64,000 nt of DNA, from the NCBI RefSeq assembly GCF_000143415.4, contig NW_003314363.1, positions 62,001 through 126,000 of the forward strand, written 5' to 3'. A program made the position numbers and the translations under genes. Of this stretch, positions 9,816 to 54,851 are shown one piece after another; the first letter of the stretch is position 1, and each line of letters begins with the position of its first letter. The stretch is from Selaginella moellendorffii (taxonomy: Eukaryota > Plantae > Lycopodiophyta). The notes under the pieces are model-generated. The model worked only from the letters and a program-made list of their open reading frames with translations, was not told the DNA's origin and made no database searches.

Positions 9816-11158
9816 GAAAAGAAAGGCTTAGTTTTTTACTTAGTTTCTTAGCAAAAACTATGATAATTGGTTTTTTTGAAATTTGGCTCATAGACCAATA
9901 TCAGTTTTTCAATTTAGAATTTTCATAACCTCTTCCTCCTCCCTTTCTTGCCTCCAACTGGTTGGCATGACAACACCCTGCCCACCAGGGATGAAGTTTC
10001 TTATTTATATTATTATTAATTTTAATTGTAATATAATTATATGTATATATATAAACCTATAATTATTATTATTTATTTATTTTTTAGACATTCTAACATC
10101 TCAAAAGCACTAAATCTTAAAGAGGGTTCTTTATAAAATAGTAAGCTCCAAACCTAGCTTATATACAGTGTTATGAATCCAGCGGGATAATAGAATTTTC
10201 CATAAGGTAAAGAATATTCTTAAAATATTCTTTATTTTAAGCTTAAATCTAATGTATCATTTATAATACTTATAATATAATGATTTTAATTTTAATTCAA
10301 GATTTATATTCAATAGGAAAATCTATTTATGATATTTATATGACATTACTAATAAAATGTATAGTTATTAGTATACCCCACACAACACCAGCGGGGAGTG
10401 TGGTACTAGCTCCTACTTGGTTTCAGCTACTCACTGCACGAGCAACGGAGTGTTAGCCATTCTTCCACGGATTCCCAAATCACTCCCAATCCCCCTCCCC
10501 GGGTTAGACTGGACTAAGGTTCGGCTACACTCCCCGCAAGCACAAGCAGCCAAGCACACCAAGCTTCCAGGTTCCTAACATCCCTTGGTACCACAAGACT
10601 TGATCATGGGACCCTCTAAATCCCAAGTCTTGAGTGCAACATTTGCTTCGGGACGTCGGGGCGAAACACCGTGGCCTAGCGGCCCGGTATGGGTACCTCT
10701 TGCCCCCCACTTCCATCCCGAAGGAAGGCCCAAGCCCCTAGGAAGGGCGAGGACCAATGAGCCGCATGGTACTCAAGTGGGGCACCACTCCACATGAGCC
10801 GGGAGCACCGCAATCGGTTTCCCTTTCGGGAGTGGGAGCTGCTCTTGAGCACTTCCTTGGATGGCCCCTCTGGCACCAGCCAAGTCCATGCTCACTCCCA
10901 CCCAAGGCCCCTCGGTCCCAGTCTCAACCTCAAGTCGGTTTGGAAGCCCAACTGGAGAGTCCCTTCAAAACTGGTTCCTGGACCTCACTATCCCTACTAT
11001 ACTTTTGGAACCCCTTGCAGGCCCCCCCCCCCCCCCCTGGGAGACGCACGCTTTGGGCTTTCACCCCTTGACCCGTATTAGTATTTGGACTTAGTCTCTG
11101 GCTCGATCTCGGACCCGATTTCGGATCCGACTTCGGATTCGGTTTCGGACTCGATCTC

Positions 11159-11480
11159 NNNNNNNNNNNNNNNNNNNNNNNNNNNNNNNNNNNNNNNNNN
11201 NNNNNNNNNNNNNNNNNNNNNNNNNNNNNNNNNNNNNNNNNNNNNNNNNNNNNNNNNNNNNNNNNNNNNNNNNNNNNNNNNNNNNNNNNNNNNNNNNNNN
11301 NNNNNNNNNNNNNNNNNNNNNNNNNNNNNNNNNNNNNNNNNNNNNNNNNNNNNNNNNNNNNNNNNNNNNNNNNNNNNNNNNNNNNNNNNNNNNNNNNNNN
11401 NNNNNNNNNNNNNNNNNNNNNNNNNNNNNNNNNNNNNNNNNNNNNNNNNNNNNNNNNNNNNNNNNNNNNNNNNNNNNNNN
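11159..11480. other. Assembly gap (322 N)
   Basis: Run of n inside the hexamer-repeat part of the 3' LTR of element A. Confidence 0.99.
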
Positions 11481-11499
11481 CCACATCGAACGTCTCTTT

Positions 11500-11765
11500 T
11501 TATCCTACGACTTGTTGACCATGTCTTCGGGGGCATCCCCCCACTTAGCGGTGTGCCTAAGTTAGCCTCCTTGGCCAAGAGCCCATGACAACGGAATATA
11601 GGTGTCCCTATACTCCTCACCTCACCACGCCCTAGTATAAGGTCGGGACTTGAACCCAGCCTTGCTTTACTAGGGGGTTGGGACTCGAACCCAACCTCTG
11701 TAAAATACGTCTACGGATTTGACATCCCCGCAGGGAGTCGGGCGTAGCTCCCTACGCCTGGTCGA
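11500..11765 (-). ncRNA. Putative structured cis-RNA element between pol and the 3' LTR of element A
   Basis: Hairpins with GGAG loop (11741-11758), two TTCRAGT T-loops (11676-11696, 11641-11661) and GACA loop (11594-11615); homologue with compensatory changes at 22781-23195. Confidence 0.65.
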
Positions 11766-11852
11766 CCTAGCTAACCCATGCTAATTAGCTTACCTTCGGT
11801 GCGCCTTCGGGTCCCAACATATGCCATTGCTCAACTTCTCAAATTGATACTT

Positions 11853-14800
11853 TTAATTGAACTTTGCATAAGTATATAGAGTTTTGCCATGCAAAAATTC
11901 CTCCACTAGATCTTGCGCGTTCGCTAGGTTCTCCTCCGGTTCCCATGTTGCTTCGTAGTGTGGAAATCCTTTCCACTTCACATGGAACTCTCTCCCCTCG
12001 CGTCTTTGTCGCTTGCTCTTGCGTGCATTGAGGATGGCCTCGACTTCGTATTCCTCCTCCCCTTGGATAACCTCAGGTAAAGGTCTTACTTGGTCCTTGC
12101 AAAGCGGATCCTCAAAATACGGCTTGAGTAAGTTCACGTGGAACACGGGATGCATCTTCCCCATCTCTCGAGGAAGTTGGAGACGGTAAGCCACTTTACC
12201 GATTCGAGCCTCAATCTCGTAAGGCCCCGCGAACCTGCTTAAGGAACTCAAGATCAATTCATTTACAGGAATACATGCATTTTTACTTTTGGGTCAACTT
12301 CCGGCTGATCCCACTTGGTAGCCTGAGGTTCTTGGTGTTCAGCCACACCTTCTCCTCAGCTTGGAACTCCACATCCCGACGCTTTTGGTTCGCGTACTTA
12401 GTTTGCCTTTGTTGAGCCCGTTCCAAGGAATCCCTCACTAGATTCCAAATGTTGAGTCTTTCCGCCGTGAATGCCTCCACTACGGGCAACTCTCCATGAT
12501 ACTCGGCCACGCCGAGTTCCACAGGACCTTCAATAGCTCGCCCATTGATGACTTCCCATGGACTCACCCCGATGCTCGAATGTGGTGAGTTGTTATAACA
12601 CATTTCCGCAAGTCCCAAATAACTTACCCAGTCGGTCTGGTCTCCCGAGACATAGCATCGCAAATAATCCTCCAGCTGCCTATTCACCCTTTCCGTTTGT
12701 CCGTATGTCAAGAAGTGTTAGTGCCATCAATCTTGACTCAATACCCATTACCTGTCTGTGGGTGATAGGCCGTGCTGAATTTCAACTTGGTGCGATACTG
12801 TTCTAGGAGTGTCCTCCAGAACCTACTGGTGAAGATCTTATCTCGATCTGAGATAATCTCTTCCGGCCTTCCCCGCACTCGAACCACTTGTTCGAAGAAC
12901 AGCTTCGCCACACCTTCCGCATCCACATCCGTTGTGGTGGGTATGAAATGTGCCATCTTTGAAAATCAGTCCACCACCACGAATATCGCATCGAACCCCT
13001 CGCTTGGGGGTAGTCCCGTGATGAAGTCCATCGTGAGACATTTCCACGGACGATCTGGAATGGGGATGCTTTGCAACAAGCCCCCACTAGCCTTTGTCAC
13101 GGCTTTGACCTGCTGACATGTTGGACATGTCTTTACATAGTCTTGGACGTCCTTAGCCATATCTGGCCAGTGATACTTCCTTTTGAGTAAGCCCATCGTC
13201 TTGGGCACTCCGCCGTGTCCCGCGAGAGGTCCGTCATGACACTCTTCCAAGGCTACCTTCCTTAGTTCCCCTTCTGGAACATACACCCTCGTTTGCTTGT
13301 AATATATGAGTCTGTTGCGTTCCGCATAGCCTGTTTTCTCTTCCGTTTGCAGCTCACTTCTCTGGTGAGCTTCCCGCGCCTCCAGATTCCTCAGCAACAC
13401 TTCTTGTGCTAGACCATCACTCTCGTATGCGGTCCGCACATCGTCCCAAAAGGTTGCTGTCGCGCTAGATATCGCCAACTTCAAGCTCGCTTTTCGACTT
13501 AGCGCATCTGCCACGATGTTGCTCTTCCCAGGCTTGTACAGGATCTCGCAATCAAACTCGGCCAAAGCATTGGCCCACCGACCTTGTTTTCCCCTTAGGT
13601 CGGGCTGTGACAAGAAGTGTTTCGTTGCCACATTGTCCGTGTAAACCTTGAAGTGTCTCCCAAGGTAGTGTCGCCACTCCTTGAGCGCCTTGACCACCGC
13701 AAACAATTCCTTCTCGTGGGCAGGCCACTTCCGTTGAGCCTTGTCCAGCTTCTTCGAGAAGAACGCTACTGGATGGTTGTCTTGCTTCAAAACTGCGCCC
13801 AACGCAAAGTCCGAAGCATCCGTGTCTACCTCAAAGTCCTTACCAAAGTCTGGTAATGCCAACACCGGAGCCTTCCTCAACTTCCCTTTGAGGTGGACGA
13901 ATGCCGCCTCGCATTCCGCTGTCCATACCATCTTCCCTTTTCCTGTTTGGTCCGTTAAGGGCAGGGCTACTCTCGAATAGTGTCTGATAAACTTTCGATA
14001 GTAGTTGCATAGCCCCAGGAACGCCCTCAACTCATGTACATTCGATGGTCGTTCCCATTCCTGGATCGCTTGGACCTTCTCCGGGTCCACCTTGAGCCCG
14101 TCCTGGCCCACCACATGCCCGAGAAACTTTACCTCTTGTTAAGCAAAGTCACATTTGCTCTCTTTAGCATACAGTTTGTGTTCCCTTAGTTTCTCAAACA
14201 CCTTCGCCAAGTGTTCGGCATGCTCCTCTAGCGTCTCGCTATAGATCAGGATGTCGTCAATATAGACGACCACGAAGCGATCCAGATAGGGTACAAAGAT
14301 GTGGTTCATCAACGCCGAAAACGTTGCCGGCGCATTGCACAGCCCAAAGGGCATCACCAGAAACTCAAAGCTCCCATACCTCGTTCGACAGGTTGTCTTC
14401 TCGACATCTTCCTCAGCTACCCTGATCTGGTAGTATTCTGACCTTAGGTCAATCCTCGAGAAGTATTTTGCCTTTCCCAACCTATCGAACAGGTCCTCGG
14501 TCCTTGGCAAAGGGTACTTGTTCTTCTTGGTATACTTGTTGAGCAACCGGTAGTCTATGCACATGCGCATAGATCCATCTTTCTTTTTCACAAATAGCAC
14601 CGGCGCCTCATACGGCGACTTGCTCAACCTAACATACCCTTTGTCCACCAACTCCTCTAGTTGGCTCTTGAGCTCCTTGAGTTCTTTTTCGTTCAATCGA
14701 TAGGGTGGACGAACCACCGCCTCAGCACCCTCGACCAGCTCAATCTTATGTTCTATCAGTCGTGCGGGGGGCAACCCCGCCGGTAGCTCCTCCGGCATCG

Positions 14801-16625
14801 TATCCTGGAATTGGTCCAGCACCTGCTGGATCACTAAAGGTACTTCTTCCGTTCTTGTCTTTTTGTTACTCTTCACCGAGAGTAAGCACAAAAAGGCTGC
14901 CTTAGTTCCTTTAGTGAGTTGTCCTCTCGTGGACACCAAGTTTAAGCATGACTCTTTGGCCTTGCTTTGCCCTACCTTTAGATCCTGGGCCTCCACCCTA
15001 GATCTTCTTCCTTGGGCATTCGCCAATACCACAAGGTTCTTACCTTGTCCATGCAGAGCTACCACGAACCGATTAAACTAATCCATTCCGAAGATCACGT
15101 CAAATCCCGCCATGTCCAAGACGGTGAAATCCATGTCCACTTTCCATGTCCCCACTTCGACTCTCGCTTGTCGAAGTACCTCATCGGTGCTTTGGCTACC
15201 TTGAACAAACTCTATAGTCCTTGGTTCGCCTAGCCGCTGCACCGTTAGTCCGGCTTGCCGGACTATGTCTGCAGCCACAAAATTATCCGAAGCACCCGTG
15301 TCAATAAGGATCTTAACAAAGCTATCTCCGAGCTTCCCTCGGAGGGCTAGTAGATGTCGCGAACGACTTTCTACCAAAGTTGCTCGTGTAATGAGTAACT
15401 TTGAGTTAGGGACTGGATCACATACCTCAGTTTGGACTTCACCCGACTTGATGGCCATATTGGCTCTGGCCTTATTCGAGTAGGGACATTCCCTCGAGAA
15501 GTGTCCCGCTTCGCCGCAGTTGTAGCATACGTTGTTTCCCACGCTGCTATATGATTTGACCTTCTTATCCGTGGGTTTGTCTTTTTTCGCTTGACTCCCC
15601 CACGTACTCGCTCGCTGGCCACCGGATTTGCCTTTCCGGAACCCCGAGGACTCATTCTTAGAGAAACTCTTTTTGAATTTCCCTTTGCTATATGTTCCCC
15701 TTGGTTTGGCCCTTTTGCTAAATGTGGATCCCGACCCCGTCGTGTTCCCCTTTCGCAGGCTATCGTTGAAATGCACCTTGATGGCCGCATCCAACGCTTC
15801 CTTGTAGTTGGTCGGGTTCCACCGCATCACCTCACCGCGAGCCCAGGTTTGCAAACCTGATATGAAGGCATGGAACGCATCCATATCCCCCATGTCCGTG
15901 ACAAGTATCCTCTTTGCCATGAACCCATTCACGTATTCCTGGATGGTTCCAGTCTGCTTCAACCTACTCAGCTCATCTCTCAGATGCAGAGTGGCATTCG
16001 GAGGAACGTATGTTGCGCGGATCCTCGCCTTCATCATGTCCCAAGTGGCCACTGGTCCTTCGTTGGCCTCCGTCGTTCTCCACCAAGACTTGGCATTATC
16101 TGCCAAGTATGGTTTTGCACATGGGACCTTCTCCGAGCTCGGTAACCGCAACGCTCGGAAGTAATCCTCCATATCGTAAAACCAATCCTCCACCACCTTA
16201 TAGTCGTTCACTCCCTTGAAGACCGGTGGGGGCTTTGGTTTGTACTTGGGAACTGCCTGAGGGACTGATTCTACTTCGGTCTGTTCGACCTTGTCTGGTT
16301 TTGCCTCAGTCCCGGCCGAAAGATCCGCACCTTCTGCGCTGCCAGCATCCGCAGTCTTTTTCTTTTTCTTCCGCCTCTCGTCACGCTTGAGCTTGCGTAC
16401 GAGAGTTTCCAGCAGGGCATTGGTCTGTGCCAACTGTCCTTCTAGCACGTCGAATCGAGCCTTGGACGACCGAACCTCGCCACCGGACTCCTGTTTGGAA
16501 GTTTCCTCACTAGAGTCCTCCTCATGCAAGGATTCCTCATCCATAGCCTCTTGTTCGACCGGAGGCTCCAGCTCCGGCGGAGGTTCCGTCTCCGCCTGGG
16601 TTCGCTTACGCCCTGCCCTTGCCAT
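11853..16625 (-). pseudogene. gag-pol polyprotein of element A: three premature stops and two intron-like inserts in the integrase
   Basis: CYNCGEAGHFSREC zinc knuckle, LIDTGAS protease, YIDD RT, DTDASD..ADALSR RNase H, HH-CC and D-D-E integrase, GPY, chromodomain (YEVEAIL..VKWKGFP..ATWEP). Stops at 15078, 14139 and 12966 are in frame. Confidence 0.93.
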
Positions 16626-16668: not shown

Positions 16669-16681
16669 GGCTCCGATACCA
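16669..16681 (-). promoter_or_regulatory. Primer binding site (tRNA-iMet type) of element A
   Basis: TGGTATCGGAGCC lies 3 nt after the LTR end ...CTTACA. Confidence 0.9.
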
Positions 16682-17890
16682 AATTGTAAGCCACAAATTT
16701 TTCCCTTTCCAATTTGCCAGCTTACCTCGTCTATCCGTCCAACACTGCCTTGGCTTTTGCTAAGTTCCCTTGCCAAGGTTCTCGCCTATGGTATCAGCTC
16801 CTACTTGGTTTTAGCTACTCACTGCACGAGCAACGGAGTGTTAGCCATTCTTCCACGGATTCCCAAATCACTCCCAATCCCCCTCCCCGGGTTAAACTGG
16901 ACTAAGGTTCGGCTACACTCCCCGCAAGCACAAGCAGCCAAGCACACCAAGCTTCCAGGTTCCTAACATCCCTTGGTACCACAAGACTTGATAATGGGAC
17001 CCTCTAAATCCCAAGTTTTGAGTGCAACACTTGCTTCGGGACGTCGGGGCGAAACACCGTGGCCTAGCGGCCCGGTATGGGTACCTCTCGCCCCCCACTT
17101 CCATCCCGAAGGAAGGCCCAAGCCCCTAGGAAGGGCGAGGACCAATGAGCCGCATGGTACTCAAGTGGGGCACCACTCCACATGAGCCAGGAGCACCGCA
17201 ATCGGTTTCCCTTTCGGGAGTGGGAGCTGCTCTTGAGCACTTCCTTGGATGGCCCCTCCGGCACCAGCCAAGTCCATGCTCACTCCCACCCAAGGCCCCT
17301 CGGTCCCAGTCTCAACCTCAAGTCGGTTTGGAAGCCCAACTGGAGAGTCCCTTCAAAACTGGTTCCTGGACCTCACTATCCCTACTATACTTTTGGAACC
17401 CCCTGCAGCCCCCCCCCCCCTGGGAGACGCACGCTTTGGGCTTTCACCCCTTGACCCGTATTAGTATTTGGACTTAGTCTTTGGCTCGATCTCGGACCCG
17501 ATTTCGGATCCGACTTCGGATTCGGTTTCGGACTCGATCTCGGACTCGATCTCGGACCCGATCTCGGACCCGACTTCGGACTCGACCTCGGACTCGGTCT
17601 CGGACCCGATTTCGGATCTCGGACTCCGTCTCGAACTCGGTCTCGAACTCGGACTCGAACTCGGTCCCCGAGTCGGTCTCGGACTCGATTCCGGACTCGA
17701 TCTCGAACTCGGTCCTAGAGTCGGTCTTGGACTCGATCTTCGACTTGGTCTCATCCGATGAACTCTTTGTCATTTTGGTCATGCTTTTGGGGTTCCTTTA
17801 GCCTACGACACCTCGGCAAGTTGGTTCCTTACACGTAGCCGTACATTTGGCCTTCACATCATTCCCTCCTCTCGGAATAATGGAAGGTTA

Positions 17891-18722
17891 TCAGGGTTTT
17901 CTTGTAGATGGGCCGGGATCTGGAGGAACGTCAGGAGGAGGCATTGGCGGATCTGTAGACGGTATTAATTGCTCCTGATCCCTTTGTATGAAGCGTTTCA
18001 ACAGCTGCACATGCACAATCTCCGGAGGATCGGCCTGTTGAACGTCATGCCGAACCTCATAAACTTGCGGTCCAACTTGCCGCAACACCCGATATGGTCC
18101 TTTCCACTGTGCAAGGAGCCCCTTAGATAAACCACGTACTGTAAGATGGGGAAAACGGACTAACACCAAATCATCCACTTTGTACTCTGCAGGTGGACGA
18201 TGATGGGAGTTGTAGTGCCGTTGTTGTCCCACTTGTACGCGGCCTAAGTGTTCGGCAGACTCTGCTCGGACAAGTGGAAGAATGCTCGTCAAATATTGAT
18301 CCCATGACCTAGCATCAGGAGCTCGTGGCAATTGCAAAGGTAAACCCAGCTCCGTTGGTAATATTAGATCATGACCATATAGAAGTTTATATGGTGAAGC
18401 ACCAACAGAACTCTGCACCCCTGTGATATAGGCATACCGAAGAGACGGCAAATAACCATCCCAATTCGAATGCTGAAAGTTCACATACTTCGCAATCATC
18501 CCTTTGAATGTCCGAACGAGCCATTCTACCAGACCGTCTGATTGTGGATGATAAGCACTCGTAAAAGTGTGGCGTATCCCCAACCGAGACGTCAAAACAT
18601 GAAATATCTCAGCCATAAATGCAGAACCATTATCCGAAAGAATCCGCTCTGGACAATAATGCTGGAACACCACTCGATTGAGGAGGAAGTATCCAATAGC
18701 AGTTGCAGAGGCACTAGCAAGA
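17891..18722 (-). pseudogene. Integrase core and C-terminus of element C
   Basis: ILSDNGSAF, TSAYHPQSDGLVE, WKGPY; rejoins WVEVGAL (29339) in frame when element B and one TSD copy are removed. Confidence 0.9.
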
Positions 18723-21700
18723 TGTGACACAAAATCCCTAGGCCCCAAAGTGGAGCCAAAAGGGTGCCACGTGGTAGTGGTTGAAGTGAAAGCCAAACGA
18801 GCATAACACATTTGGACTAAAAGCTCCGACTTGAAAAGGTCAAGAGTGGGAGTGGGACTCCCAACGAAGTGCTCGAGGAATGAGCACGAAGCGAGCAATA
18901 AGCAAGGCTCCAAAAAGGGACCCAAGTTGGAGTCCAAAGTGGAGTCCAAGAAGGACCCCGAGATGGAGTCCGAGGTGGAGTCCGAGATGGACCCGAGATG
19001 GAGTCCGAGGTGGACCCGAGATGGATCCGAGATTGAGTCCGAGACGGACCCGAGATGGATCCGAGATGGAATCCGAGATGGAGTCCGAGATGGAGTCCGA
19101 GCTGGACCCGAGATGGAGTCCGAGATGGACTCGAGATGGACCCGAGATGGAGTCCGAGATGGACCCGAGGTGGAGTCCGAGATGGACCCGAGATGGACCC
19201 GAGATGGAGTCCGAAGTCGAGACCGAGACCGGGACCGAGACTGGGACCGAGACCGAGACCGAGATCGGGACCGAGATCGGGACCGAGACCAAGGCCGAGG
19301 TCGAGACCGAGCCCGAGCCCGAGTCTGAGTCCGAGTCTGAGTCTGAGTCCGAGTCCGAGTCCGAGTTCGAGTCCGAGTCCGAGTTCGAGTCTGAGAGGGT
19401 GAAAGCCCAAAGCGTTCGTCTCCTAGACCCTGGGGGGTTTGGTGAGCTCCAAAAGTATAGTAGGGGGGAGGACTGCAGTGGAGCCAGTTTGGCCAGGAAA
19501 GGCCAGTTTGGCCTAGGAAGGCTGGACCCAGTGTTGGGTGATGAGCTGCCCACTGGGAAGTCCAAGACTAGAGTGAACACAAACCGACAAGCGGGGTAGC
19601 TTGGTGAAGTATTCAAGAGTCGGGTCTAGTTCCCCCGGGAGATCGACTGGCCGATGCTCCCAGTCCAAGTGTGGGTGGCACTACCTACTTGGATACTAGG
19701 TGTGGCTCAACGGAACCTCGCTCTAAGCCCATGGCTAGAGCACCCAAAGGCGGAAGGCAGGGAGAGTACCCACGAGGCTTGCGTAAGGCCACGATGTTCT
19801 GAAATGTTGTCCCAAAGGCCCAGACTATGGAAAGGAAGAGGAGTAGTCCTCTGGTGTGGTGACAAAGGACACGGTCACCCAGTGAGGAAGTCCCAGAGAA
19901 CAGTTGGACTTAGAGGTCGGGCCTGCTGGCCTTGATCCAGTGGCAATGTTGGTGAACACGGCCATCGACAGAGAGGGACTTGATGGGGACCGGAAAAGAG
20001 ATATTGGGGAAGGTTATTCCCTAAGTCTGCAAGCATCCTAAGGATGCTAAGGAGTGGATCTGGGATGATCACTCATGGATGGATGGCCTAGTCTATGAGA
20101 GATGGGATTGCAATGTAGGTGGTGTTGGACCACCGGTGTGACCAAGGTGAATAGGTATATCCTCAGCGTAATAGGCTGATATGTCGGTGGTACCTTGGGG
20201 TGTCGATCATGGGATCGGACATGTGGAGAACTTAGACCAAGTGCAAAGGTTGAGTGGCATGGATGCCATTCTTGGGGCTAGCAAGCCCCAAGTCCTAACT
20301 GGGACTTGTGGAGGTTGTGAATGAGACTCCTCCAAGTGGTCGGAGGTGTGGTTAACTGACTAAAGTAAAATGGAAAAATTAGTCGTTTACAACTTGGTAT
20401 CGGAGCTATTCCTTAGTCCGACTTTTATTGGTGCTCAAGTATATCACCACTAGTGTTGGCATCGGAAGGTCCGAGGTGTGGGCCTATCCTTGAGGAGTAG
20501 CAGGTTAGGAAGACATGGCTCTCCATTACAGTTCATGTGTGAACTTGTAGACAAGGTGGTGGATAGAAAAGGGCCAATAATGGAACGACTTTGGGATCTT
20601 GGGAACAGTGCAAGGTTTTCCTCATTGAGTTGAGGAGGTGATCCAGATGAGCGTTTGACTCACCAAACTGGCTAACGTAGTTATGGTAAACAACTATAGT
20701 TGGGATCACGGGAAAGATGTAGACTCCAAAACAATAAAGGAGTCACAAGATTACCCTCATATAGTTGAGGCTGGTGCTCATAACTTTGAGACCAGAATTA
20801 ATGACCATGGGAAGTCAAATACAGAAGAGGACACAAGTCTTTAAAATGGTAGCCGGGGCCCTAAAGGGCAAAAGGTTGCCCCAAGAGAACAAATCAAGTG
20901 TCGGAGTAACACTTGCAAAGATGGTCCTTGTGAGCAGGAACTGAATACAAGAAGTTGTATTCTAGCGAGTTAGCACCTCGAAGACTAAAACCTCGCAGGT
21001 CGTTGGATTAGCAAAGTCTAAAATGCTGGATGACTCAAGTGGAGTCAGGGAATGGTCCTAAGGGATTGGTTGAAACATTTGGACTGAGGTGTATGGTGCC
21101 CTATAAGGTATGGGGAGGATCATAAGATCCAAGCATGAGAGGAGTGTGTATCTCATTGATGGCAGAAGGTGCTATGCTAAAGTCGTGGGAAGGAGTTTAC
21201 CGGAAGAAAACAACTTTGACGCAAAGTTGTGCGTGAACTCTATGATGCAGTGCTAATGGATAATTAGCATAAGAGACAACCATATTGGTCTTGGCAATAA
21301 GACCTAGACACCAGTAAGAAGTGTCATAAAGGTAGGCTCGTGGAGCCGATGGTGTGGAGACACTGAATGTGCCAAGGCATGCTGCCTTGAGGTCAAGTTG
21401 GCAGGTTTATGAGAACCCATTCTAAAGGAATCCCAATGGAAATGGGAATAGCATAGCCTATGCTGGAAGGCATGCGGTTAGAGTGTGGTGACCCAGATAA
21501 TGATGGAGGTGTGGAAGCACCAGCAATGAGTTGTAGGATTTGACAACTATTAGGCAACTAAGAAAAAGGTGCAAAATAATTCGTTAAACTGGTAAAAGGC
21601 AACTATCTAAGACTTTTTATTGGGATAAGGATGTTAGATATACCCTTATGGGGGATAAATTGCTTATGTTACAATATAGTAAGTCAATGTCAAAAGAGGA

Positions 21701-22780
21701 ATGCTCATTGTCAAAGAAGCCATCATTGGGACACCCAAACACTCTAGAACACCAGAAGGTGGTGTTTGGTGGCATGAGGGTAACGGATAATGCCCAAGGG
21801 ACAAAGTCTCTAACAAATGATAGATAGGAGGTGCTATCCAAATGTCCAAGGTTGCGGTGACGGGAGAAGTCCGTCTACCCAAATCGGACAAAGCCAACGA
21901 CGGGATTTTGGCGGGGCCAGTGATGGGCATATGAAGGCCCATAAGTAGCAACGGCAATCCTAGTATAGGGGATTACAAGGTGAGCAAACTCGGATTGAGG
22001 AACCACTCCCTAGGTGGTCGAGTAGGTTCATCTTTATGAATACTTGCCAAGGCATGGTAGAAAGTGCAAAGCTATCTTCCTAGTCTAGAGGAGAATAACC
22101 GAAGGAAATGTATGAGGCCAAAAAGCAAGTAATATAAGGATAGAACCGAACCATAGGAATTGACAGGCATGACCAAGGGTGGTTATGCAAGTTGGGAGTG
22201 GAGAATCAAGTGGGTGCTCAAGCATGTTGTTACTAGCGGCCGGGATGCCATGGAGAGTCTAAAGTATGGGATTGTCCATGTTAGAATATATGGTAATTGG
22301 AAAGTTTGCGAAAAGAGAGACCTTAGCAAGCTAAGGAACAGAGTTCCTTGAACGTTCCCCTAGGTAGATAAGTACCTAGTCGGCCAAGTGTAAATGGTTC
22401 ATAGAACGTGCGAAATCAGAGTGGCACAGCAGAAGCGTGGTCTTGAAGCTTGCCATGAGGCGAGGCTAGCAAGATTAGGGAAGTAGTTCCTGAGTGTTCA
22501 AAAAGAGGGCTTTGAACGAAAGTCGATGGTTAAGGACTTTCACGCTTATGTATAAACCATGTTATGGTGGCCAGATGACTTGCTAAGTGAGATTGGCAAG
22601 TCGGGGGGGAACGAATACCCTAGTTGAAGGAGCCAACTTCAAAGGGGTGGCCCATGGGGCCGAGCATGGAGGAGTCCATGCATGATTACAGGCTTATCAA
22701 GTGAGAGGACTTGGCAGTGCGGAGGAACTAGGTTCCTAAACTGTGATCTGTAGCGCGCTTTAAATATAAATTGGTGCACT

Positions 22781-23195
22781 GGCGTGGGGAGTCACGCCAG
22801 TCATCCTGTGTGATGCCATTCGTAGATGCATATACGGAGGTTGGGTTCAAGTCCCGACCCTCTAGTGCTTGGGTTCGAGTCCCAAATCATTAGGGCGTGG
22901 TGATGGTTTGGAATATGAGGACACTCATATTTTGGTGGTCATGGACTCTCAATGGGGAGACTGGTTTGGGCACACCGCCAAGCGAGGGATGCCTCGGAGT
23001 CGTGATGCACGGTTAGATTGCTTAGTGTGAAAGCTCGGCATATCTAACTTGAACGCTTTGGTGCAAGTGGCACTAAGGACATGGTGAGTGAGATGGGGAC
23101 ACCTAATCTCAGTTGTTATGGACCCTTGGCCGTAAGGGCTGGCTTGGGTGTACTGCCAAGTATGGGGGATGTCCCTGGGGTTATGGTCAACAACT
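22781..23195 (+). ncRNA. Homologue of the structured cis-RNA element in element B, with its 3' half tandemly duplicated
   Basis: GGAG hairpin 22781-22798, T-loop hairpins 22839-22859 and 22869-22885, GACA hairpins 22911-22932 and 23089-23111. Confidence 0.65.
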
Positions 23196-24085
23196 TGAAG
23201 GTCTAGAAGACCAAATACCTCTTGGCAACTCTGTTAAGGTGCCAAGGTGAGATCACTAGGTGATCTTATGGCCAAATGAGGACAAGGTCCTTGGTTGGCT
23301 AAGGAAGGAAGTTCCTGGTTCAAAATGTTGATTTGAACTATTTAAGATGGTGTGGCTTGGTCAAAGTGATCAAGTGGGAAGGGCACCTAAGGGAAATAAG
23401 TTGTGTCCGTGCGATGGCATAGTGAGTCCAAGGAAAGTAGTCTTTATAAGAGACCCATGGGAGGGTCATGAAGTTGGGCCGTGGATAGAGCATATAGCAG
23501 AAGATGCTAAAGAAACGTACTAGGAGTGAACATCCTCCGGACTTGGCAAAGAAGAGTTTTTTCTATGGAACCGAAGGGATACCTCGAAAATGGAGGTAGC
23601 CATCTTGTGTTGCTGGGTGCAACAATCAAGGATAGGAACAAAGGACTAGTGGCCAAGTTTGGGCCATGGAATTTAATGGAAGGGATCCAAATGGCAAAGT
23701 TAGCCAAGGAACACTAATGTGTTTGATGCTAACGGCTTGTGGGAAAGGAAGTGGACTTCCAAGGATGGATTCCTAAGTGCTCTAATTTGGCGAAGTAAAA
23801 GCTCCAAGTGAGGGAGCGGCAAAGTAGCCAAAAGATAGGGCCATGGACAGCCCTAGCACAAATTATGATAACCGGAACTTAGTGCCAAAGGTGGCACGAA
23901 ATCGAAGAGAGGATGATAATGTTGCCCTCGAGTAGAGGACTTCCTAGGATGGGGAAGTGGAGTTGCACAATATGTGCAATGCAAGGTGTCAAAGACACCC
24001 AGGAAATTGACTTCGAGAAGTCAAGATTTAAAAGTTCCAAAGTGCAAGGGTTATATCGATGGAAAGTGAGACCACTCGAGAATGT

Positions 24086-25863
24086 TGTAAGCGACCAAAT
24101 TTTCCATTCTACTTTAGTCACTTAACCACACCTCTGACCACTTGGAGGAGTCTCATTCACAACCTCCATAAGTCCAATCCAGGACTTGGGACTTGCTAGC
24201 CCCGAGAATGGCATCCATGCCACTTAACATTTGCACTTGTTCCAAGTGCTCCACGTGTCCGATCCCATGACCGACACTCAAAGGTACCACCGACATAGCA
24301 GCCCGTTACGCTAAGGCCATGCCCAATCACCTTTGCCACACTGGTAGTCCAATACCACTTGCATCACCATCTTGGCTCTCCAAGACTAGGCAAACCATCC
24401 GTGAGTGGTCATCTCAGATCCACTCCTTAGCATCCTTAGGATGCCCACCGACAAGGGGAATAGCCTTCCCCAATATCCCTCTGTCAGTTCCCACTAAGTC
24501 CCTTTCTGCCCCTGGCCGTGTTTGCCAACACTGCCACTGGATCGAGACCCACAGGCCCGACCACTAAGTCCCCCGGTCCTCTGGGACTTCCTCACCACAC
24601 GACTGTGTCCTTGGTCACTACCCCAGAGGACTGCTCCTCTTCCTTTCCACAGTCTGGGCCTTTGGGACAACATTTCGGAACACCGTGGCCTTACGCGAGC
24701 CACCTGGGTACTCTCCTCGCCTTCTGCCTTTGGGTGCTCTAGCCATGGGCTTAGAGCGGGTTCCATTGAGCCACACCAGGTATCCAAGTAGGTAGTGCCA
24801 CCCACACTTGGACTGGGAGCATCGGCCAGTCGATCTCCCGGGGGAACTAGAGCCGGCTCTTGAACACTTCACCAAGCTACCCCGCTTGTCGGTCTGTGTT
24901 CACTCTAGTCTTGGACTTCCCAGTGGGCAGCTCATCACCCAACACTGGGTCCGGCCTTCCTGGGCCAAACTGGCCTTTCTTGGCCAAACTGGCTCCACTG
25001 CAGTCCTCCCCCCCTACTATACTTTTGGAGCTCACCAAACCCCCCAGGGTCTGGGAGACGAACGCTTTGGGCTTTCACCCTCTCAGGCTTCGGACTCGGA
25101 CTCGGACTCGGACTCGGACTCGGACTCGGACTCGGACTCGGACTCGGACTCGGACTCGGACTCGGACTTGGACTCGGACTCGGACTCGGACTCGGACTCG
25201 GACTCAGACTCGGATTCGGACTCGGACTCGGGCTCGGCCTCGGTCTCGGCCTCGGCCTCAGTCTCGGTCTCGGTCCCGATCTCGGTCTCGGTCTCGGTCT
25301 CGGTCCCGGTCTCGGTCTCAACTTCGGACTCCATCTCGGACTCCATCTCGGACTCCATCTTGGACTCCATCTCAGGTCCATCTCGGGTCCATCTCGGACT
25401 CCATCTCGGACTCCATCTCGGGTCCATCTCGGACTCCATCTCGGACTCCATCTCGGGTCCATCTCGGACTCCACTTCGGACTCCAACTCGGGTCCATCTC
25501 GGGTCCACCTCGGACTCCACTTCGGACTCCATCTCGGACTCCATCTTGGGTCCATCTCGGACTCCACTTCGGACTCCAACTCGGGTCCATCTCGGACTCC
25601 ACTTCGGACTCCAACTCGAGTCCATCTCGGACACTCCCACGTGTCATGTGTTGGTCCTTTTGGGTCCCTTTTTGGAGCCTCGCCTTTTGCTCGCTTCGTG
25701 CTCGTTCCTCGAGCACTTCGTTGGGAGTTCCACTCCCGCTCTTGACTTTTCAAGTCGGAGCTTTTGGTCCAAACGTGTTACGCTCGTTTGGTTTTCGCTT
25801 CAGCCACTACCACGTGGCGCCCTTCCAGCTCCACTTTGGGGCCTAGGGATTTTGTGTCTCACA
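24086..25863 (-). mobile_element. Solo LTR, family B, TSD AATGT
   Basis: Full LTR-B in reverse orientation; AATGT at 24081-24085 and 25864-25868. Confidence 0.93.
25089..25230. repeat. (GGACTC)n hexamer array inside an LTR; similar arrays occur in the other A and B LTR copies
   Basis: More than 20 near-perfect units here; shorter arrays at ~19315-19393, 28255-28340 and 35780-35845, followed by 12-mer GGACTCCATCTC-type repeats. Confidence 0.95.
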
Positions 25864-26050
25864 AATGTATAGTGGGATCGAGTTAGAGAAGGTGTTTCTA
25901 ACAGGTTTAGTGAGAACTAAACCAATAAAAGGAGAGAACCACCACAAGTGGTCGAATGACCCTCTAAGTCGGGGAGGCTATGCTCTTTAGGCTCACCAAA
26001 GGCATGGTGAGCCTTTGGTGTCAAACCATAGACAAATATTGGCTGGGTGC

Positions 26051-27203
26051 TGTAAAGAACCAACTCGCCGAGGTGTCGTAGGATAAAGGAACCCCGAAAG
26101 CATGACCAAAATGACAAAGAGTTCATCGGATGAGACCAAGTCGAAGATCGAGTCCAAGACCGACTCTAGGACCGAGTTCGAGATCGAGTCTGGAATCGAG
26201 TCCAAGACCGACTCGGGGACCGAGTTTGAGTCCGAGTTCGAGACCGAGTTCGAGACGGAGTCCGAGATCCGAAATTGGGTCCGAGACCGAGTCCGAGGTC
26301 GAGTCCGAGGTCGGGTCCGAGATCGGGTCCGAGATCGGGTCCGAGATCGAGTCCGAAACCGAATCCGAAGTCGGATCCGAAATCGGGTCCGAGTTCGAGC
26401 CAGAGACTAAGTCCAAATACTAATACGGGTCAAGGGGTGAAAGCCCAAAGCGTGCGTCTCCCAGGGGAGGGGGGGGGGGCTGCAGGGGGTTCCAAAAGTA
26501 TAGTAGGGATAGTGAGGTCCAGGAACCAGTTTTGAAGGGACTCTCCAGTTGGGCTTCCAAACCGACTTGAGGTTGAGACTGGGACCGAGGGGCCTTGGGT
26601 GGGAGTGAGCATGGACTTGGCTGGTGCCGGAGGGGCCATCCAAGGAAGTGCTCAAGAGCAGCTCCCACTCCCGAAAGGGAAACCGATTGCGGTGCTCTCG
26701 GCTCATGTGGAGTGGTGCCCCACTTGAGTACCATACGGCTCATTGGTCCTCGCCCTTCCTAGGGGCTTGGGCCTTCCTTCGGGATGGAAGTGGGGGGGTA
26801 GAGGTACCCATACCGGGCCGCTAGGCCACGGTGTTTCGCCCCGGCGTCCCGAAGCAAGTGTTGCACTCAAGACTTGGGATTTAGAGGGTCCCATGATCAA
26901 GTCTTGTGGTACCAAGGGATGTTAGGAACCTGGAAGCTTGGTGTGCTTGGCTGCTTGTGCTTGCGGGGAGTGTAGCCGAACCTTAAGTCCAGTCTAACCC
27001 GGGGAGGGGGATTGGGAGTGATTTAGGAATCCGTGGATGGATGGCTAACACTCCGTTGCTCGTGCAGTGAGTAGCTGAAACCAAGTAGGAGCTGGTACCA
27101 TAGGCGAGAACCTTGGCAAGGGAACTTAGCAAAAGCCAAGGCAGTGTTGAACGGATAGTCGAGGTAAGCTGGCAAATTGGAAAGGAAAAAATTGTGGCTT
27201 ACA
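26051..27203 (+). mobile_element. Solo LTR, family A, TSD GGTGC
   Basis: Reverse complement of 16685-17833; GGTGC at 26046-26050 and 27204-27208. Confidence 0.95.
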
Positions 27204-29338
27204 GGTGCCAAGGATGGAAATGGTAACATGTGCGGGTGTTACTTTATGAAAGGGTTTACTATTCGATGAGGACATCGAACTTCGTCTATGGGTGGTGGAG
27301 TTGTGAGACACAAAATCCCTAGGCCCCAAAGTGGAGCCGAAAGGGTGCCACATGGTAGTGGTTGAAGCGAAAGCCAAACGAGCGTAACACGTTTGGACTA
27401 AAAGCTCTTACTTGAAAAGGTCGACAGTGGGAGTGGGACTCAAAACGAGTGGGAGTGGGACTCCATGCTATCCTCCGGGACAGAGGGAAGCTCAAGAGGC
27501 TCGAGGAGTGGCAAAAAGCATGGCTGCCATGTTTTGGTAGAGGAGATTCGTTGGAGATGGCGCCCCCCGGAGTCGATCTTGCGGTCAGCACGAAGGGGGG
27601 ATATGGATCTGGACGTGATACGACGGAGACGACCGCAGCCGCTTCTACTACAGGCCTAGTCTCACTTTAGATGAGGGAGATCACCACTAGGTAGCATGAG
27701 CTTTGGGCAGCATGCCCAGTTTTTGTATTAGTCCCTACGGGACATTGGGGAATGTACATACACGTTTCATCAAAACGAAGTGCTCGAGGAATGAGCACAA
27801 AGCGAGCAATAAGCGAGGCTCCAAAAAGGGACCCGAGTTGGAGTCCAAAGTGGAGTCCGAGAAGGACCCCGAGATGGAGTCCGAGGTGGAGTCCAAGATG
27901 GACCTGAGATGGAGTCCGAGGTGGACCCAAGATGGATTCGAGATTGAGTCCGAGACGGACCCGAGATGGATCCGAGATGGAGTCCGAGCTGGAGTTCGAG
28001 ATGGACCTGAGATGGAGTCCGAGATGGACTCGAGATGGACCCGAGATGGAGTCCGAGATGGACCCGAGGTGGAGTCTGAGATGGACCCGAAATGGAGTTC
28101 GAGATGGAGTCCGAGATGGACCCGAGATGGAGTCCGAGATGGAGTCCGAAGTCGAGACCGAGACCGGGACTGAGACCGGGACCGAGACCGAGACCGAGAT
28201 CGGGACCGAGACCGAGATCGAGACCAAGGCCGAGGCCGAGACCGAGCCTGAGCTCGAGTCCGAGTCCGAGTCCGAGTCCGAGTCCGAGTCCGAGTCCGAG
28301 TCCGAGTCCGAGTCCGAGTCCGAGTCTGAGTCCAAGTCTGAGAGGGTGAAAGCCCAAAGCTTTTGTCTCCCAAACCCTAGGGGGTTTGGTGAGCTCCAAA
28401 AGTATAGTAGGGGGGAGGACTGCAGTGGAGCCAGTTTGGCCAGGAAAGGCCAGTTTGGCCCAGGAAGGCCGGACCCATTGTTGGGTGATGAGCTGCCCAC
28501 TAGGAAGTCCAAGACTAGAGTGAACACAAACCGACAAGCGGGGTAGCTTGGTGAAGTATTCAAGAGCCGGGTCTAGTTCCCTCGGGAGATCGACTGGCTG
28601 ATGCTCCCAGTCCAAGTGTGGGTGGCACTACCTACTTGGATACCAGGTGTGGCTCAACGGAACCTCGCTCTAAGCCCATGGCTAGAGCACCCAAAGGCGG
28701 AAGGCAGGGAGAGTACCCACGAGGCTTGCGTAAGGCCACGATGTTCTGAAATGTTGTCCCAAAGGCCCAGACTATGGAAAGGAAGAGGAGTAGTCCTCTG
28801 GTGTGGTGACAAAGGACACGGTCACCCAGTGAGGAAGTCCCAAAGGACAGTTGGACTTAGAGGTCGGGCCTGCTGGCCTTGATCCAGTGGCAGTGTTGGT
28901 GAACACGGCCATCGACAGAGAGGGACTTGGTGGGGACCGGAAAAGAGATATTGGGGAAGGTTATTCCCTAAGTCTGCGAGCATTCTAAGGATGCTAAGGA
29001 GTGGATCTGGGATGATCACTCATGGATGGATGGCCTAGTCTATGAGAGACGGGATTGCAATGTAGGTGGTGTTGGACCACCGGTATAACCAAGGTGAATA
29101 GGTATGTCCTCAGCGGAACGGGCTGATATGTCAGTGGTACCTTGGGGTGTCGATCATGGGATCGGACACGTGGAGAACTTAGACCAAGTGCAAAGGTTGA
29201 GTGGCATGGATGCCATTCTTGGGGCTAGCAAGCCCCAAGTCCTAACTGGGACTTGTGGAGGTTGTGAATGAGACTCCTCCAAGTGGTCGGAGGTGTGGTT
29301 AAGTGACTAAAGTAAAATGGAAAAATTAGTTGCTTACA

Positions 29339-31560
29339 CAAGAGCACCAACTTCCACCCAACGAGTCAAGTAGTCAGAAGCAATAATAACATACTCATTG
29401 CCAGCAGTCGACCGTGGAAAAGGTCGCATAAAATCAAACGCCACCAACTCAAACAGACGGGAAACTGCAATTGACTCCAACTGTCCTTCCACAGCACAAG
29501 GGGGAGTATTACGAGCTTGGCACCAAACGCAGCTACGCACATACCGGATAACATCACGTCGCATCTCCGGCTAATAGAAAGACCTACGCAGCTTCTCAGT
29601 CATACGACAGTGTCCCATATGCCCACCTAGAATAGGAGAATCATGGTAGGCATGGAGAAACCGCGGAATAAAGATAGAAGGTACCACCAGCTGTAAAGGA
29701 TCATCAGGATCCGTCCCCACAAAATAAAGGAGGCCATCTTCAAGACGATATTGAGAATGTAAATGCCGAAAATGCAAGTCATCAGCAAGTGATGTAGGAT
29801 TCTCAAATGCATCTCGAAGCCTTCGAATCCACGGCTCAATCTTTTGAGCCTCACGAACCTCATGAAGAGAAGGTAGATCTTGCGGACACTGAACGTCAAG
29901 TACAGCAACCGCTGATGGCACAGAATCCTCGTCTAGAAAATCCACAGATGCTGGAACAACAGGCTCATAAAAAACATGAGAAGGGATCAGAAGATAGGTC
30001 AAATTCAAAGAGATCAGAATACTCCTTCATGAGCCGATCAACAGCTGCAACACAAAGATCTTCGGAGGGATCGGAAAAGGGAAGAGCAGAACAAGATGGA
30101 AACATAGGAGGAAATAGTGGGGAAACAAAAGTAATAGAAGCAAAGGTAGAAGTAGAGGGACGAAGAGGTACGGAAGTGAGAGGAATGGATAAAACATAAG
30201 GAAGTATGAGACAAGGGGGAGAAGCCTCAAAGTCATGATTGCGCTGCAACCAATCCATACCAAGAATGAGGTCAAAAGCTTGACTCGGCACCACCCGCAA
30301 CGACTGCAACTCAAGCTCGAGATTGCCCACACATACAACCAGGTCCGCCTCATCTCGTGCACATGCATGTGTACAGCCGTTGCCATAAAGAATGAAAATT
30401 GGATCCGCCGCACAACGTAAATGTAGACAACAATGTGTGGCAACAGGTCGAGCAATAGAAGATAAACTCGAATCTGTATCAACCAACACGGAGAGAAGAA
30501 TAGGAAACCTCTTGTTATAAAACTGAGCTTGGAAAGTAAACATTGGATGAACCAGTGCCGAGTGAACCCCTTGATGATACTCTCGAAAGAAAGATGGAGG
30601 GGTCATTAACTTATTCGCGTAAGGTCCCTTCGTTACTCGTGCGACTCCTCGTTTCCCGAATGCACCTCAGTGTCCAAACCTTCCACCGCAGCAGCACCAA
30701 TAGGACGTTGCTGACGCCAAGGTCTCCATCCAGGAAATGGAGGTCGCCAATCCGGAAAGCGTCGACAACGCCAATAAGTATGACCAACTTCATCACACGC
30801 CCAGCAACGAACATCACGGCCACGACCACGTCCGTGCCCTTGTCCGTGGACTCGAGTAGCAGCAGCATCAACCTCCATTGGAACAGGACTATCACTTATA
30901 GGAAGTGGAGCTGAAGGACGTGCAGTGAGAAATGGAAGAGGCAACGTCTCATAATGTTGTGCCAAGCGAAGAGCATCGTCAAGGGTGGCAGGAGCAAGTG
31001 CATGCACAAGGCCGACAAGATCTTGACAAAGTGCTGGCCACAACATTCCTAGCTTGATCCGCTCCGACATATTAAGCTCCGCACGAAGCAAAAGACTTCG
31101 GAAACGAACGCCAAATTGCATCACCAACTCAGATGGCCCTTGGCGAAGACGATGCAATTGTTAGTAGGCATCGTCACAATTGTCGGCATGTCCGACGGCG
31201 CATTTGAAGACGTCTGGAAGAACACTCCAATCCCCACAAGTGGTCGCACTCAATCCATTGTACCACTACAACGCCGTCCCTTGAAGACACGTGGGAAAGC
31301 AAACATCGAGCATCATCCCAAGAATGATATGTGGCAATCACCATGAAGTGATCGAACCAATGGTACACATCATCCCCAGGATTCCCACGAAAGAACTCCG
31401 GCCGAACGCGAGGATTGGCACCAAGAGCAGGAGGAGTTGGACAACGTGCCGTGAATGCCGCCATCAATTGAGTTTGGTTGTTCAATTGCAAGCGCATAGC
31501 ATCAAGCAATTGAACCAACTGCTGCTCTAGAGTCAAAGGAGGAGATTGCGGATCGGCCAT
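29339..31560 (-). pseudogene. gag, protease and integrase N-terminus of element C (frameshifted)
   Basis: RPEFFRG gag start, LRQGPSE, zinc knuckle, LVDTDSS..FDLILGMDWL, HDSPILGGHMGH..CVWC..FDFMRPF. Confidence 0.88.
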
Positions 31561-32810: not shown

Positions 32811-34052
32811 GATTGAAATAAAATCCAAAGCCATGGCATAAGTATTAATTAACTATAGAACCTCGATAAACCAATTGCAACTCCATATGCAACTCCTAAA
32901 TGCTTAAACCAACCACACAACCATAAATTTGAATTGGGGAGGTCGGATTCGCTCTATTCGTCCTTTACATTTTCTTTATCCCCTTCTCAAAGGAAATTTT
33001 TTTTAAAGCACTAGCTCCATTTAGACTCATTGCACTTGTCCTCATTCCACCATCTATGTCCGGCCTCACTCCAATATTACATCCATTCAGTTTCACTACA
33101 TCAAAGTTGGATGTTTTTTTCGGATTTGCTATACTCATCCTCACTCCATAATTCATATTGTTTGCCTTCGCTCCACTATCGTATGCGTTCGTCCTCACTC
33201 CATTGTTGGGGCCGGACTCCCGTCTGTCCCCTCTACCCCCTCCTTCGAGGAATTTTTTTTTTTAAGTGTCAGGGCAAAAAGGAGAAAATGAGAAAAATTG
33301 AGGAAAAATAATTGTGGAAGAAGAAAAAGTAAATAAAGAAGCATCGGAAGAGGAATTTGCAGCAACTAACAATACAAAAATGGGGAAATCAAAAGAACAT
33401 TTACTTAAAACTTGGAAAATAGAGGATTTCCTATCATAAAATACTTCAGCAACTACAATATAAGCAAAAGATTCACACTGTTCAACTCCCTCAACACATA
33501 ATTTAACACTTGAGACAGGAAAATTAATAATAACATCCACACTCTCAAGGGAATATATAAACTCTTTAGCAGTAATAGTAAAGCAAGGGCTCTCAGTGGC
33601 ACTCATAAGTGGGGACTGTAAGTGACTAATTTTTTCCATTCTACTTTAGTCACTTAACCACACCTCCAACCACTTGGAGGAGTCTCATTCACAACCTCCA
33701 TAAGTCCCACTCAGGACTTGGGGCTTGCTAGCCCCGATAATGACATCCATGCCACTCAACCTTTGCACTTGGTCCAAGTACTCCACGTGTCCAGTCCCAT
33801 GACCGACACCCCAAAGCACCACCAACATACCAGCCCGTTACACTAGGCCATGCCCAATCACCTTGGTCACATCGGTGGTCTAACACCACTTGCATTGCAA
33901 TCCCGTCTCTCCAAGACTGGGCCATCCGTCCATGAGTGGTCATCCCAGATCCACTCCTTAGCATCCTTAGGATGTCTGCAGACATGGGGAATAGCCTTTC
34001 CCAATATCTCCTTTCTGGTCCCCACCAAGTCCCTTTCTGTCCTTGGCCATGT

Positions 34053-35208: not shown

Positions 35209-35931
35209 CATGTTCGCCAACACTGCCATTGGATCAAGGCCCACAAGCTCGACCACTAAGTCCTACAGTCCTCTGGGACTTCCTCACCGCATGACTATAT
35301 CCTTGGTCACTACACCAGAGGACTACTCCTCTTCCTTTCCACAGTCTGGGCCTTTGGGACAACATTTCGGAACACCATGGCCTTACGCAAGCCTCGTGGG
35401 TACTCTCCCCGCCTTCCGCCTTTGGGTGCTCTAGCCATGGGCTTAGAGTGAGGTTCCGTTGAGCCACGCCTGGTATCCAAGTAGGTAGTGCCACCCACAC
35501 TTGGACTGGGAGCATCGGCCAGTCGATCTCCCGAGGGAACTAGAGCCGGCTCTTGAACACTTCACCAAGCTACCCTGCTTGTCGGTCTATGTTCACTCTA
35601 GTCCAAGCTTGGACTTCCCAGTGGGCAGCTCATCACCCAACACTGGGTATAGCCTTCTTGGGCCAAACTGGCCTTTCCTGGCCAAATTGGCTCCACTGCA
35701 GTCCTCCCCCTACCATACTTTTGGAGCTCACCAAACCCCCCAGGGTCTGGGAGATGAACGCTTTGGGCTTTCACCTTCTCAGACTCGAACTCGGACTCGG
35801 ACTGGGACTGGGACTTGGACTCAGACTCGGACTCGGACTCAGACTCGGCCTCAGTCTCGGCCTCGGCCTCGGTCTCGGTCTTGGTCCTGATCTCGGTCCC
35901 GGTCTCAGTCTCGGTCTCGGTCTCGGTCCCG

Positions 35932-54779: not shown

Positions 54780-54851
54780 TGCTCCCAGTGAGGATCGAAC
54801 TCACGACCTCTCGCTTACGAAGCGAGCGCAATACCACTATGCTATGGAAGC
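54780..54851 (-). tRNA. trnT: tRNA-Thr(CGT)
   Basis: GCTTCCA/TGGGAGC acceptor stem, CTCGC-TTCGTAA-GCGAG anticodon arm, GTTCGATC T-loop, downstream T-run. Confidence 0.95.

Follow-up and report, generated by a model that had tools for sequence, protein, structure and literature searches.

A hairpin module with twin tRNA T-arm mimics shared by a coding chromovirus and a non-coding LTR element of Selaginella moellendorffii, a probable cis-acting RNA signal

Introduction

In HIV-1 psi, the GGAG tetraloop of SL3 binds nucleocapsid and palindromic loops initiate dimers, and in mouse the MTE of MusD lies 3' of pol and is paired with a non-coding dependent element, ETn. According to the available text of two accounts, the MusD MTE and the IAP RTE of mouse are structured RNA export elements, and RNA export of plant LTR elements has not been studied directly (PMC12786077, PMC3362945). 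Packaging and dimer signals are known mostly at the 5' end; in Ty3, both UTRs are needed for packaging and the dimer site is 5' (PMC11381356, available text). Box B of brome mosaic virus, which is conserved with the tRNA T-loop, is described in the available parts of PMC4083346 and PMC5869524 as needed for RNA recruitment to replication and as working when moved. Regarding Selaginella moellendorffii, the accessible text of PMC3350952 describes SM1-Galahad, a chromovirus of the Galadriel clade of which no intact copy was found and in which the chromodomain is in a later frame.

The locus described here lies in a window (the whole stretch of DNA that was analysed) of 64,000 nucleotides, in which a coding chromovirus (element A) and a non-coding LTR element (element B) carry the same compact module of hairpins. 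The coordinates of all features are given in Table 1.

Results

Table 1. Positions in the window of the features of elements A and B and of the hairpin module that they share.
Feature	Position	Strand	Remarks
5' LTR of A	16685-17833	-	1149 nt, TG..CA ends, 12-nt G run
Primer-binding site of A	16670-16681	-	tRNA-Met type according to PMC3350952 (available text)
gag-pol of A	11856-16625	-	gag, CCHC, PR, RT, RH, IN, chromodomain
Module of A, whole	11513-11762	-	between chromodomain stop and pre-PPT hairpin; about 250 nt
H1	11741-11758	-	7-bp stem, GGAG loop (variable in the family)
H2 stem	11697-11717	-	weakened at 11703 and 11699 in this copy; most depth has the pairing letter there
T1, tRNA T-arm mimic	11676-11696	-	7-bp stem, 7-nt TTCGAGT loop; also a perfect Pol III B-box
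Base stem capped by T2	11630-11675	-	8 bp; T2 (second T-arm mimic) at 11643-11659
H3	11593-11616	-	long stem, GACA loop
Two-way strand (candidate switch)	11584-11591	-	partner upstream 11629-11622 or downstream 11523-11515
H4	11567-11581	-	GGCC loop core
H5	11543-11562	-	6-bp stem with double changes at two pairs, GCACACCG loop
H6	11530-11541	-	GATG-loop hairpin
Pre-PPT hairpin of A, 5' arm	11481-11492	-	truncated by N gap 11159-11480
3' LTR of A, readable part	10401-11158	-	98.4% identity to 5' LTR
5' LTR of B	18723-20391	+	TSD CAAGA at 18718-18722
Primer-binding site of B	20395-20406	+	12 letters identical to those of A
B unit 1	22777-23011	+	full module; T-arms 22839-22859 and 22869-22885; H4 loop not GGCC
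B unit 2	23055-23192	+	duplicate of the 3' half of the module; T-arm lost, GGCC loop retained
Solo LTRs inserted in B	24084-25861, 26051-27203
Pre-PPT AGGA-loop hairpin and PPT of B	27262-27300	+
3' LTR of B	27302-29338	+	TSD CAAGA at 29339-29343

The two elements

Element A, encoded on the minus strand, belongs to the Ty3/gypsy chromoviruses. Its gag-pol is damaged by premature stops and by loss of the frame in the integrase: the first frame extends over 1295 codons from the first Met to the integrase frame loss, three premature stops being counted through, and the chromodomain is found in a separate later frame. The hairpin module fills the 3' non-coding region of 375 nt, and the N gap lies between the module side and the 3' LTR. 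Element A matches the published SM1-Galahad family, an assignment made by shared features and not by sequence comparison. Both have S. moellendorffii as host, the proteins of two single-exon genes of the window clustering with records of this species; according to the available text of PMC3350952, both are about 7.5 kb long, with LTRs of 1076/1146 nt published against 1149 nt in A, both have a G run in the LTR and a tRNA-Met primer-binding site, and the published 1295 amino acids compare with the 1295 codons of A, with the frame ending in the integrase. The same text of that account mentions neither a 3' structured RNA (the word "untranslated" has 0 occurrences) nor a non-autonomous partner like B (PMC3350952).

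Element B (18723-29338, plus strand) is a complete non-autonomous LTR element of about 7.6 kb once the two inserted solo LTRs are subtracted, and its two LTRs have 95.6% identity. The pol of B had been called almost unreadable in an earlier note on this DNA; it is undetectable altogether, since a chromovirus Pol profile gave no gag-pol match in the interior, where the longest stop-free stretch has 102 codons. The same profile did detect a decayed third element flanking B on either side, at E 5e-40 and 3e-23. With TSD and LTRs present and no gag-pol detectable, B transposed as a non-coding unit. Two LTRs, PBS, PPT and TSD, the absence of coding capacity and a length of >4 kb place it among the LARDs or non-autonomous LTR elements. 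The third element (17834-18724 and 29349-30522, minus strand) is a decayed gypsy element, and B is inserted within its integrase region. Solo or partial LTRs of the A and B families and of another LTR family, 67-75% identical, are found at 24084-25861, 26051-27203, 33617-38012 and 41910-43608, and all of them carry 11-12-nt tandem repeats.

A comparison of the 5.2-kb interior of A with the interior of B by nhmmer returned the module only, twice (E 1.5e-22 and 6e-12), the next match being at E 0.57. Apart from the primer site and the pre-PPT hairpin, the module is the only interior sequence that the two elements have in common; in the LTRs they also share the end and a tandem repeat. Since it is separated from the pre-PPT hairpin by about 20 nt in A and by about 1.1 kb in B, the module is not tied to the PPT. 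Elsewhere in the interior of B, a 27-nt stretch at 22415-22442 (plus strand) occurs once in the window and has no Rfam match. In sense orientation this stretch resembles the 5' part of initiator tRNA-Met, its first letters matching the primer-site letters after TGGT with one exception.

The hairpin module

The five hairpins and the palindrome that the earlier note had quoted are all present, on the sense strand of each element, which for A is the minus strand (H1 at 11758-11741, the GACA hairpin at 11615-11594, the palindrome at 11579-11570) and for B the plus strand (hairpins at 22781, 22911 and 23089). Two T-arm hairpins and one further stem had gone unlisted. The modules of A and B have 71% identity over 232 nt (E 3e-20), and the second copy in B has 73% over 122 nt (E 6e-10). 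In the fold of A, a further helix closes the multi-branch that holds H4, H5 and H6. The T-arms survive in unit 1 of B, where the GGCC loop is gone, and unit 2 shows the reverse. The two-way strand can form both helices in all three copies, with differences of 4.5, 2.7 and 2.1 kcal/mol between constrained folds and a reversed preference in B unit 2. Its two partners resemble each other; a role of strand 11591-11584 as an RNA switch is a lead only, and duplication could explain the pairing.

T1 and T2 are GGGTTCRAGTCCC hairpins with 7-nt loops, present in A and B, and their shape is that of the tRNA T-arm. When a T-arm was defined as a G-UUCRANY-C loop on a stem of at least 5 bp, T1 had 7 bp in both A and B, and the stem of T2 had 5 bp in B and 4 bp plus an extension in A. 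Five T-arm hairpins were detected in the window against 0.5 expected, four in the modules and one in the sole tRNA gene (tRNA-Thr at 54780-54851, the only one found by ARAGORN). T1 and T2 are near-repeats, and one contig record fits both. The four copies of GGTTCRAGTCC are perfect matches to the Pol III B-box. Neither a cloverleaf nor a D-arm was detected in the module by ARAGORN, and its best match in the tRNA clan was tRNA-Sec (E=6). A decayed full tRNA or the head of a tRNA-derived SINE was rejected, there being no cloverleaf and no conservation of the A-box-like letters in B.

Paired changes and folding

With hand-drawn helices, which were chosen with both sequences known, 61 of the 62 pairs of A stay canonical in B unit 1 (null 50.8), and 8 double changes were found against 2.2 expected (p 4e-5). 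In an unbiased test, in which one sequence is folded alone and its fold mapped onto the other, the comparisons of A and B unit 1 gave 5 double changes against 2.1 (p=0.04) and 6 against 1.9 (p=0.008), and of six control comparisons, made between diverged repeats of the window, none reached significance for double changes. The unbiased folds gave no significant result for A against B unit 2 (1 against 1.2; 2 against 1.1) or for double changes between the two units of B. In the three-copy 3' half, RNAalifold found 8 of 40 pairs changed on both sides, a count reached by 5 of 500 shuffles, which is not to be read as a probability. The covariation claimed earlier thus holds for A against B unit 1, where double changes exceed chance, and does not extend to A against B unit 2, three sequences being compared in all. 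Evidence from these three homologous sequences that the structure has probably been selected is good, at a grade below that of R-scape.

Regarding the strand, antisense folds show a like excess of double changes (7 against 2.0 and 7 against 2.1), and double changes alone therefore carry no strand information. Single changes at Watson-Crick pairs in the sense folds went 12 times to G-U and once to A-C from A to B unit 1, with a G-U:A-C ratio of 5:2 from B unit 1 to A; the ratio was 9:7 in the B1-to-A antisense fold and 45:42 in the six controls summed, one control alone having 7:1. As a G-U lean also appears in coding controls when the fold comes from the alignment, the strand argument uses only the single-sequence test, in which single changes lean toward a fold of the sense-strand RNA.

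Folding z was -4.4 for A sense, -2.9 for A antisense, -2.8 for B unit 1 and -1.2 for B unit 2. The interior of B as a whole folds below shuffles, with z of -2.8 to -4.1 in several segments outside the module and -1.4 to -2.6 in the segments of the module, which is therefore not the folding peak of B. Two stretches outside the module (22554-22703 and 23874-24023, plus strand) have fold z of about -4, and further structured parts of the B interior are possible.

Variation among family copies

The families of A and B are both highly repeated in DNA run X1, in which 7903 contigs fell on the stretch of A and 9388 on that of B, depth being no measure of copy number. Variants were taken among the best 40 supported rows for each of the two stretches. 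At sense positions 11571 and 11572, G stands in 98% and 87% of depth; the 10-nt palindrome pointed out earlier is therefore present in A and private to this copy, while the GGCC core remains in the H4 loop of A and also in B unit 2, not in unit 1. Nor is the GGAG loop fixed in the family, as had been stated: A stands at its fourth position in about 12% of the depth of X1 and in about half of that of X4. At six stem positions (11699, 11703, 22820, 22890, 22933 and 23172) the copies in the window have a mismatch or wobble and most depth has the pairing letter, as expected if the window copies decayed after insertion. Stem-breaking variants are also present, at 22929 (29% of depth) and 22955 (13%). 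Parts of the module persist in contigs with 81-86% identity to A (three records), and one contig is without H1 (joint 11714-11773). RNA reads numbered 4 on the module of A in run X22 and 0 on that of B in runs X23 and X24, counts that have no control gene for scale.

Searches outside the window

The comparison with Rfam that had been proposed was run, and no family matched the module at the gathering score or at a meaningful E-value. A self-cleaving ribozyme or retrozyme was rejected for want of an Rfam ribozyme match, which leaves the earlier suggestion of self-cleavage unsupported. A blastn search of both modules against 138 relative loci (80 metagenome, 11 viral, 47 genome) gave a single match, in L131 at E 0.75. 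Covariance models R1 (three sequences) and R2 (two sequences), run against 77 of the 138 loci and the window, recovered only the training copies and one weak match, in L055 (12.7 bits, E 0.31); the proposed search for homologues by covariance model found none in these 77 relative loci, and the module in this form is thus not a clade-wide requirement. An unfiltered covariance scan of the window returned nothing further below E 0.05. A twin-T-loop pattern occurred in 48 loci of viral contigs, none with a retro-pol match, and the contexts listed resemble tRNA arrays of phages or tRNAs duplicated in part. Two more specific sequence patterns and a protein scan with a C-terminal piece of A gave 0 matches each. 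In the literature within the scope of the search, no description of the module was found.

In the closest metagenome family, represented by 12 copies whose best segments reach 44-49% identity in RH-IN, a hairpin-rich non-coding region of 750 nt occupies the same position. No similarity to the module was found in this region, which also lacks T-arms, and its covariation was not above that of coding controls (1 pair with double changes in at least 2 sequences, against 5 and 2). A long 3' region thus recurs in the clade, the module being so far specific to Selaginella.

Further features were observed in the related loci. The copies of the closest metagenome family (L053, L054, L055, L058, L060, L061, L063, L064, L066, L071, L075 and L076) carry, at about 40-790 nt past the chromodomain match, two units of an AGGA hairpin and a PPT-like stretch. 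The first directly follows the pol stop, the second precedes the true LTR, and the 750-nt spacer separates them. A hairpin with an AGGA or AGGG loop and a freely changing stem precedes the PPT at 27262-27279 and 43052-43069 of the window and, by a strict script, in 18 of the 67 relative loci with enough downstream sequence; this pre-PPT hairpin is a general chromovirus feature, likely a signal of reverse transcription or of the integration end. A T-arm hairpin with a perfect 7-bp stem lies in the 3' LTR of a distant gypsy element (L131:4873-4893), and a second motif resembling a T-loop follows it at about 160 nt. Plant-type gypsy elements were present in 47 contigs of prokaryote assemblies (L140-L186), where contamination is likely.

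Discussion

A probable RNA signal and its rivals

The module is retained by a non-coding element, shows paired changes and is free in position, and it thus fits a cis signal read in trans. On our analysis it is probably a cis-acting RNA selection signal, serving packaging, recruitment or export. As to the step, packaging or recruitment by Gag/Pol is favoured and is a tentative assignment, nuclear export or stabilization is rather unlikely, and other steps of the cycle are improbable. The module would fold in vivo on the sense RNA, and the proteins of a helper element, or a host factor serving them, would select the genomic RNA that bears it. Both families would need such a helper, since SM1-Galahad is published without an intact copy in the available text of PMC3350952 and B is non-coding; SM2-Galahad is a candidate. 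The T-arms may act as protein-binding handles, as box B does for the 1a protein of brome mosaic virus, and the GGCC loop and the two-way strand may add dimerization or a switch. A more specific version is doubtful as it stands: the twin T-arm mimics would be an address label for Gag or reverse transcriptase, which gene-less parasites would have copied and duplicated, outcompeting the helper. The available text of 10.1101/202747 reports that T-loop hairpins of the shape of T1 and T2 can be m1A-methylated in human mRNA, and m1A at the T-loops would be expected to hinder reverse transcription, which counts against an RNA signal.

The same hairpins might instead be read by host enzymes as tRNA. 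The T-arms would then receive m1A, pseudouridine or m5U, or be cleaved by nucleases of tRNA processing, and this would tune RNA stability or cause reverse transcriptase to pause near the 3' end and change template. GUUCRA in a hairpin with a 7-nt loop is a substrate of TRMT6/61A in human mRNA (10.1101/202747, available text), and T2 with the base stem beneath it resembles an acceptor-T minihelix; against this, no variant was seen at the A58-equivalent positions among the best-supported variant rows listed, the D-arm and cloverleaf are absent (ARAGORN; tRNA-Sec E=6), and B unit 2 retains the 3' half without a T-arm, which together make this explanation improbable. An element acting at the DNA level is improbable too. 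Its two GGTTCRAGTCC motifs, which make four perfect B-box matches in A and B together, would bind TFIIIC as an internal promoter or chromatin barrier, and the hairpins would be by-products or reflect how a short Pol III transcript folds. H1 does start with the A-box-like letters GGCGTAG, 68 nt upstream in A; these letters are not conserved in B, where the A is G and most depth has C before it, the stems reach past the B-box, most of the module is box-free, and the G-U lean is toward the sense strand. Cassandra, Helenus and Ajax are non-autonomous LTR elements with captured Pol III promoters (PMC10886601, PMC7215508, available text), but Helenus and Ajax conserve only promoter motifs inside the LTRs and not a fold (PMC10886601, available text), in which the module differs.

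The module may also be a passenger that B gained by recombination from a Galahad family, where it had already diverged, and carried without need; local duplications, of T1 and T2 and of the sequences that can pair with the switch strand, would account for part of its symmetry. This is unlikely. T1 and T2 are indeed near enough for one record to fit both, and the rest of the B interior is of obscure origin, with candidate source families outside the sample; yet paired changes would still need selection in the donor lineages, B keeps two versions, the high-share variants mostly keep or tighten pairs, and no flanking chromodomain sequence came with the module into B. For the preferred reading, a cis-acting RNA signal, a non-coding element that shares one compact module with a coding family points to a cis signal and offers a test substrate of 250 nt. 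Of the earlier proposal of a packaging, dimerization or export signal, a selected cis-acting RNA structure stands (retention in B, paired changes, G-U lean), and the specific analogies are weak.

Comparison with known systems

The analogies drawn to SL3-like GGAG and to the palindrome have been weakened, as the loop varies and the long palindrome is private. SL3 and the module share a GGAG tetraloop in A and B, but here the loop varies and the location is 3'; a fixed SL3 mimic was rejected because the fourth letter of GGAG varies in the family. Retroviral psi and DIS lie in the 5' leader and the module lies 3' of pol. Compared with palindromic dimer-initiation loops such as the Ty3 palindrome (PMC11381356, available text), the module has a GGCC core in the loop of A and of B unit 2; a palindromic loop is absent from B unit 1. 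A 10-nt palindromic dimer site was rejected, the palindrome being private to this copy of A.

Regarding non-autonomous elements, B resembles the LARDs described in the available text of PMC7215508 and PMC13570524 in being long and non-coding with LTRs, PBS, PPT and TSD and in having an interior that folds well, and differs in having a discrete module common to a coding family, which is identifiable as a candidate cis signal. Small-RNA-like motifs in non-autonomous LTR elements are common to B and to Cassandra, Helenus and Ajax; as far as PMC10886601 is available, the latter are short elements with promoter boxes in the LTRs and a fold that is not kept, whereas the module is internal, keeps its fold and has no shared A-box. 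B was not classed as a Pol III promoter TRIM of this type, the motifs being internal and both A and B >7 kb.

Like the MTE and RTE, the module is a multi-helix cis RNA in an LTR retrotransposon (PMC12786077, PMC3362945, available text); it has no sequence or Rfam match to them and a plant host. The MTE has a kissing loop together with a pseudoknot (PMC12786077, PMC3362945, available text), whereas the module has T-arm mimics and an export role only by analogy. The feature is real, known from one species and three sequences. It is of an ordinary type, being a 3' cis element of an LTR retroelement that a dependent partner has retained, and unusual in its twin T-arm mimics. The available text of PMC4083346 and PMC5869524 shows that box B of brome mosaic virus is likewise an internal tRNA T-loop motif in a stem-loop, in an RNA virus without reverse transcription and with one box per RNA, against two T-arms in 250 nt here. 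If true, the address-label reading would make the module the retrotransposon counterpart of bromovirus box B and the first defined selection signal of a plant LTR element, and T-arm mimicry would tie the selection of retrotransposon RNA to a trick of plant RNA viruses.
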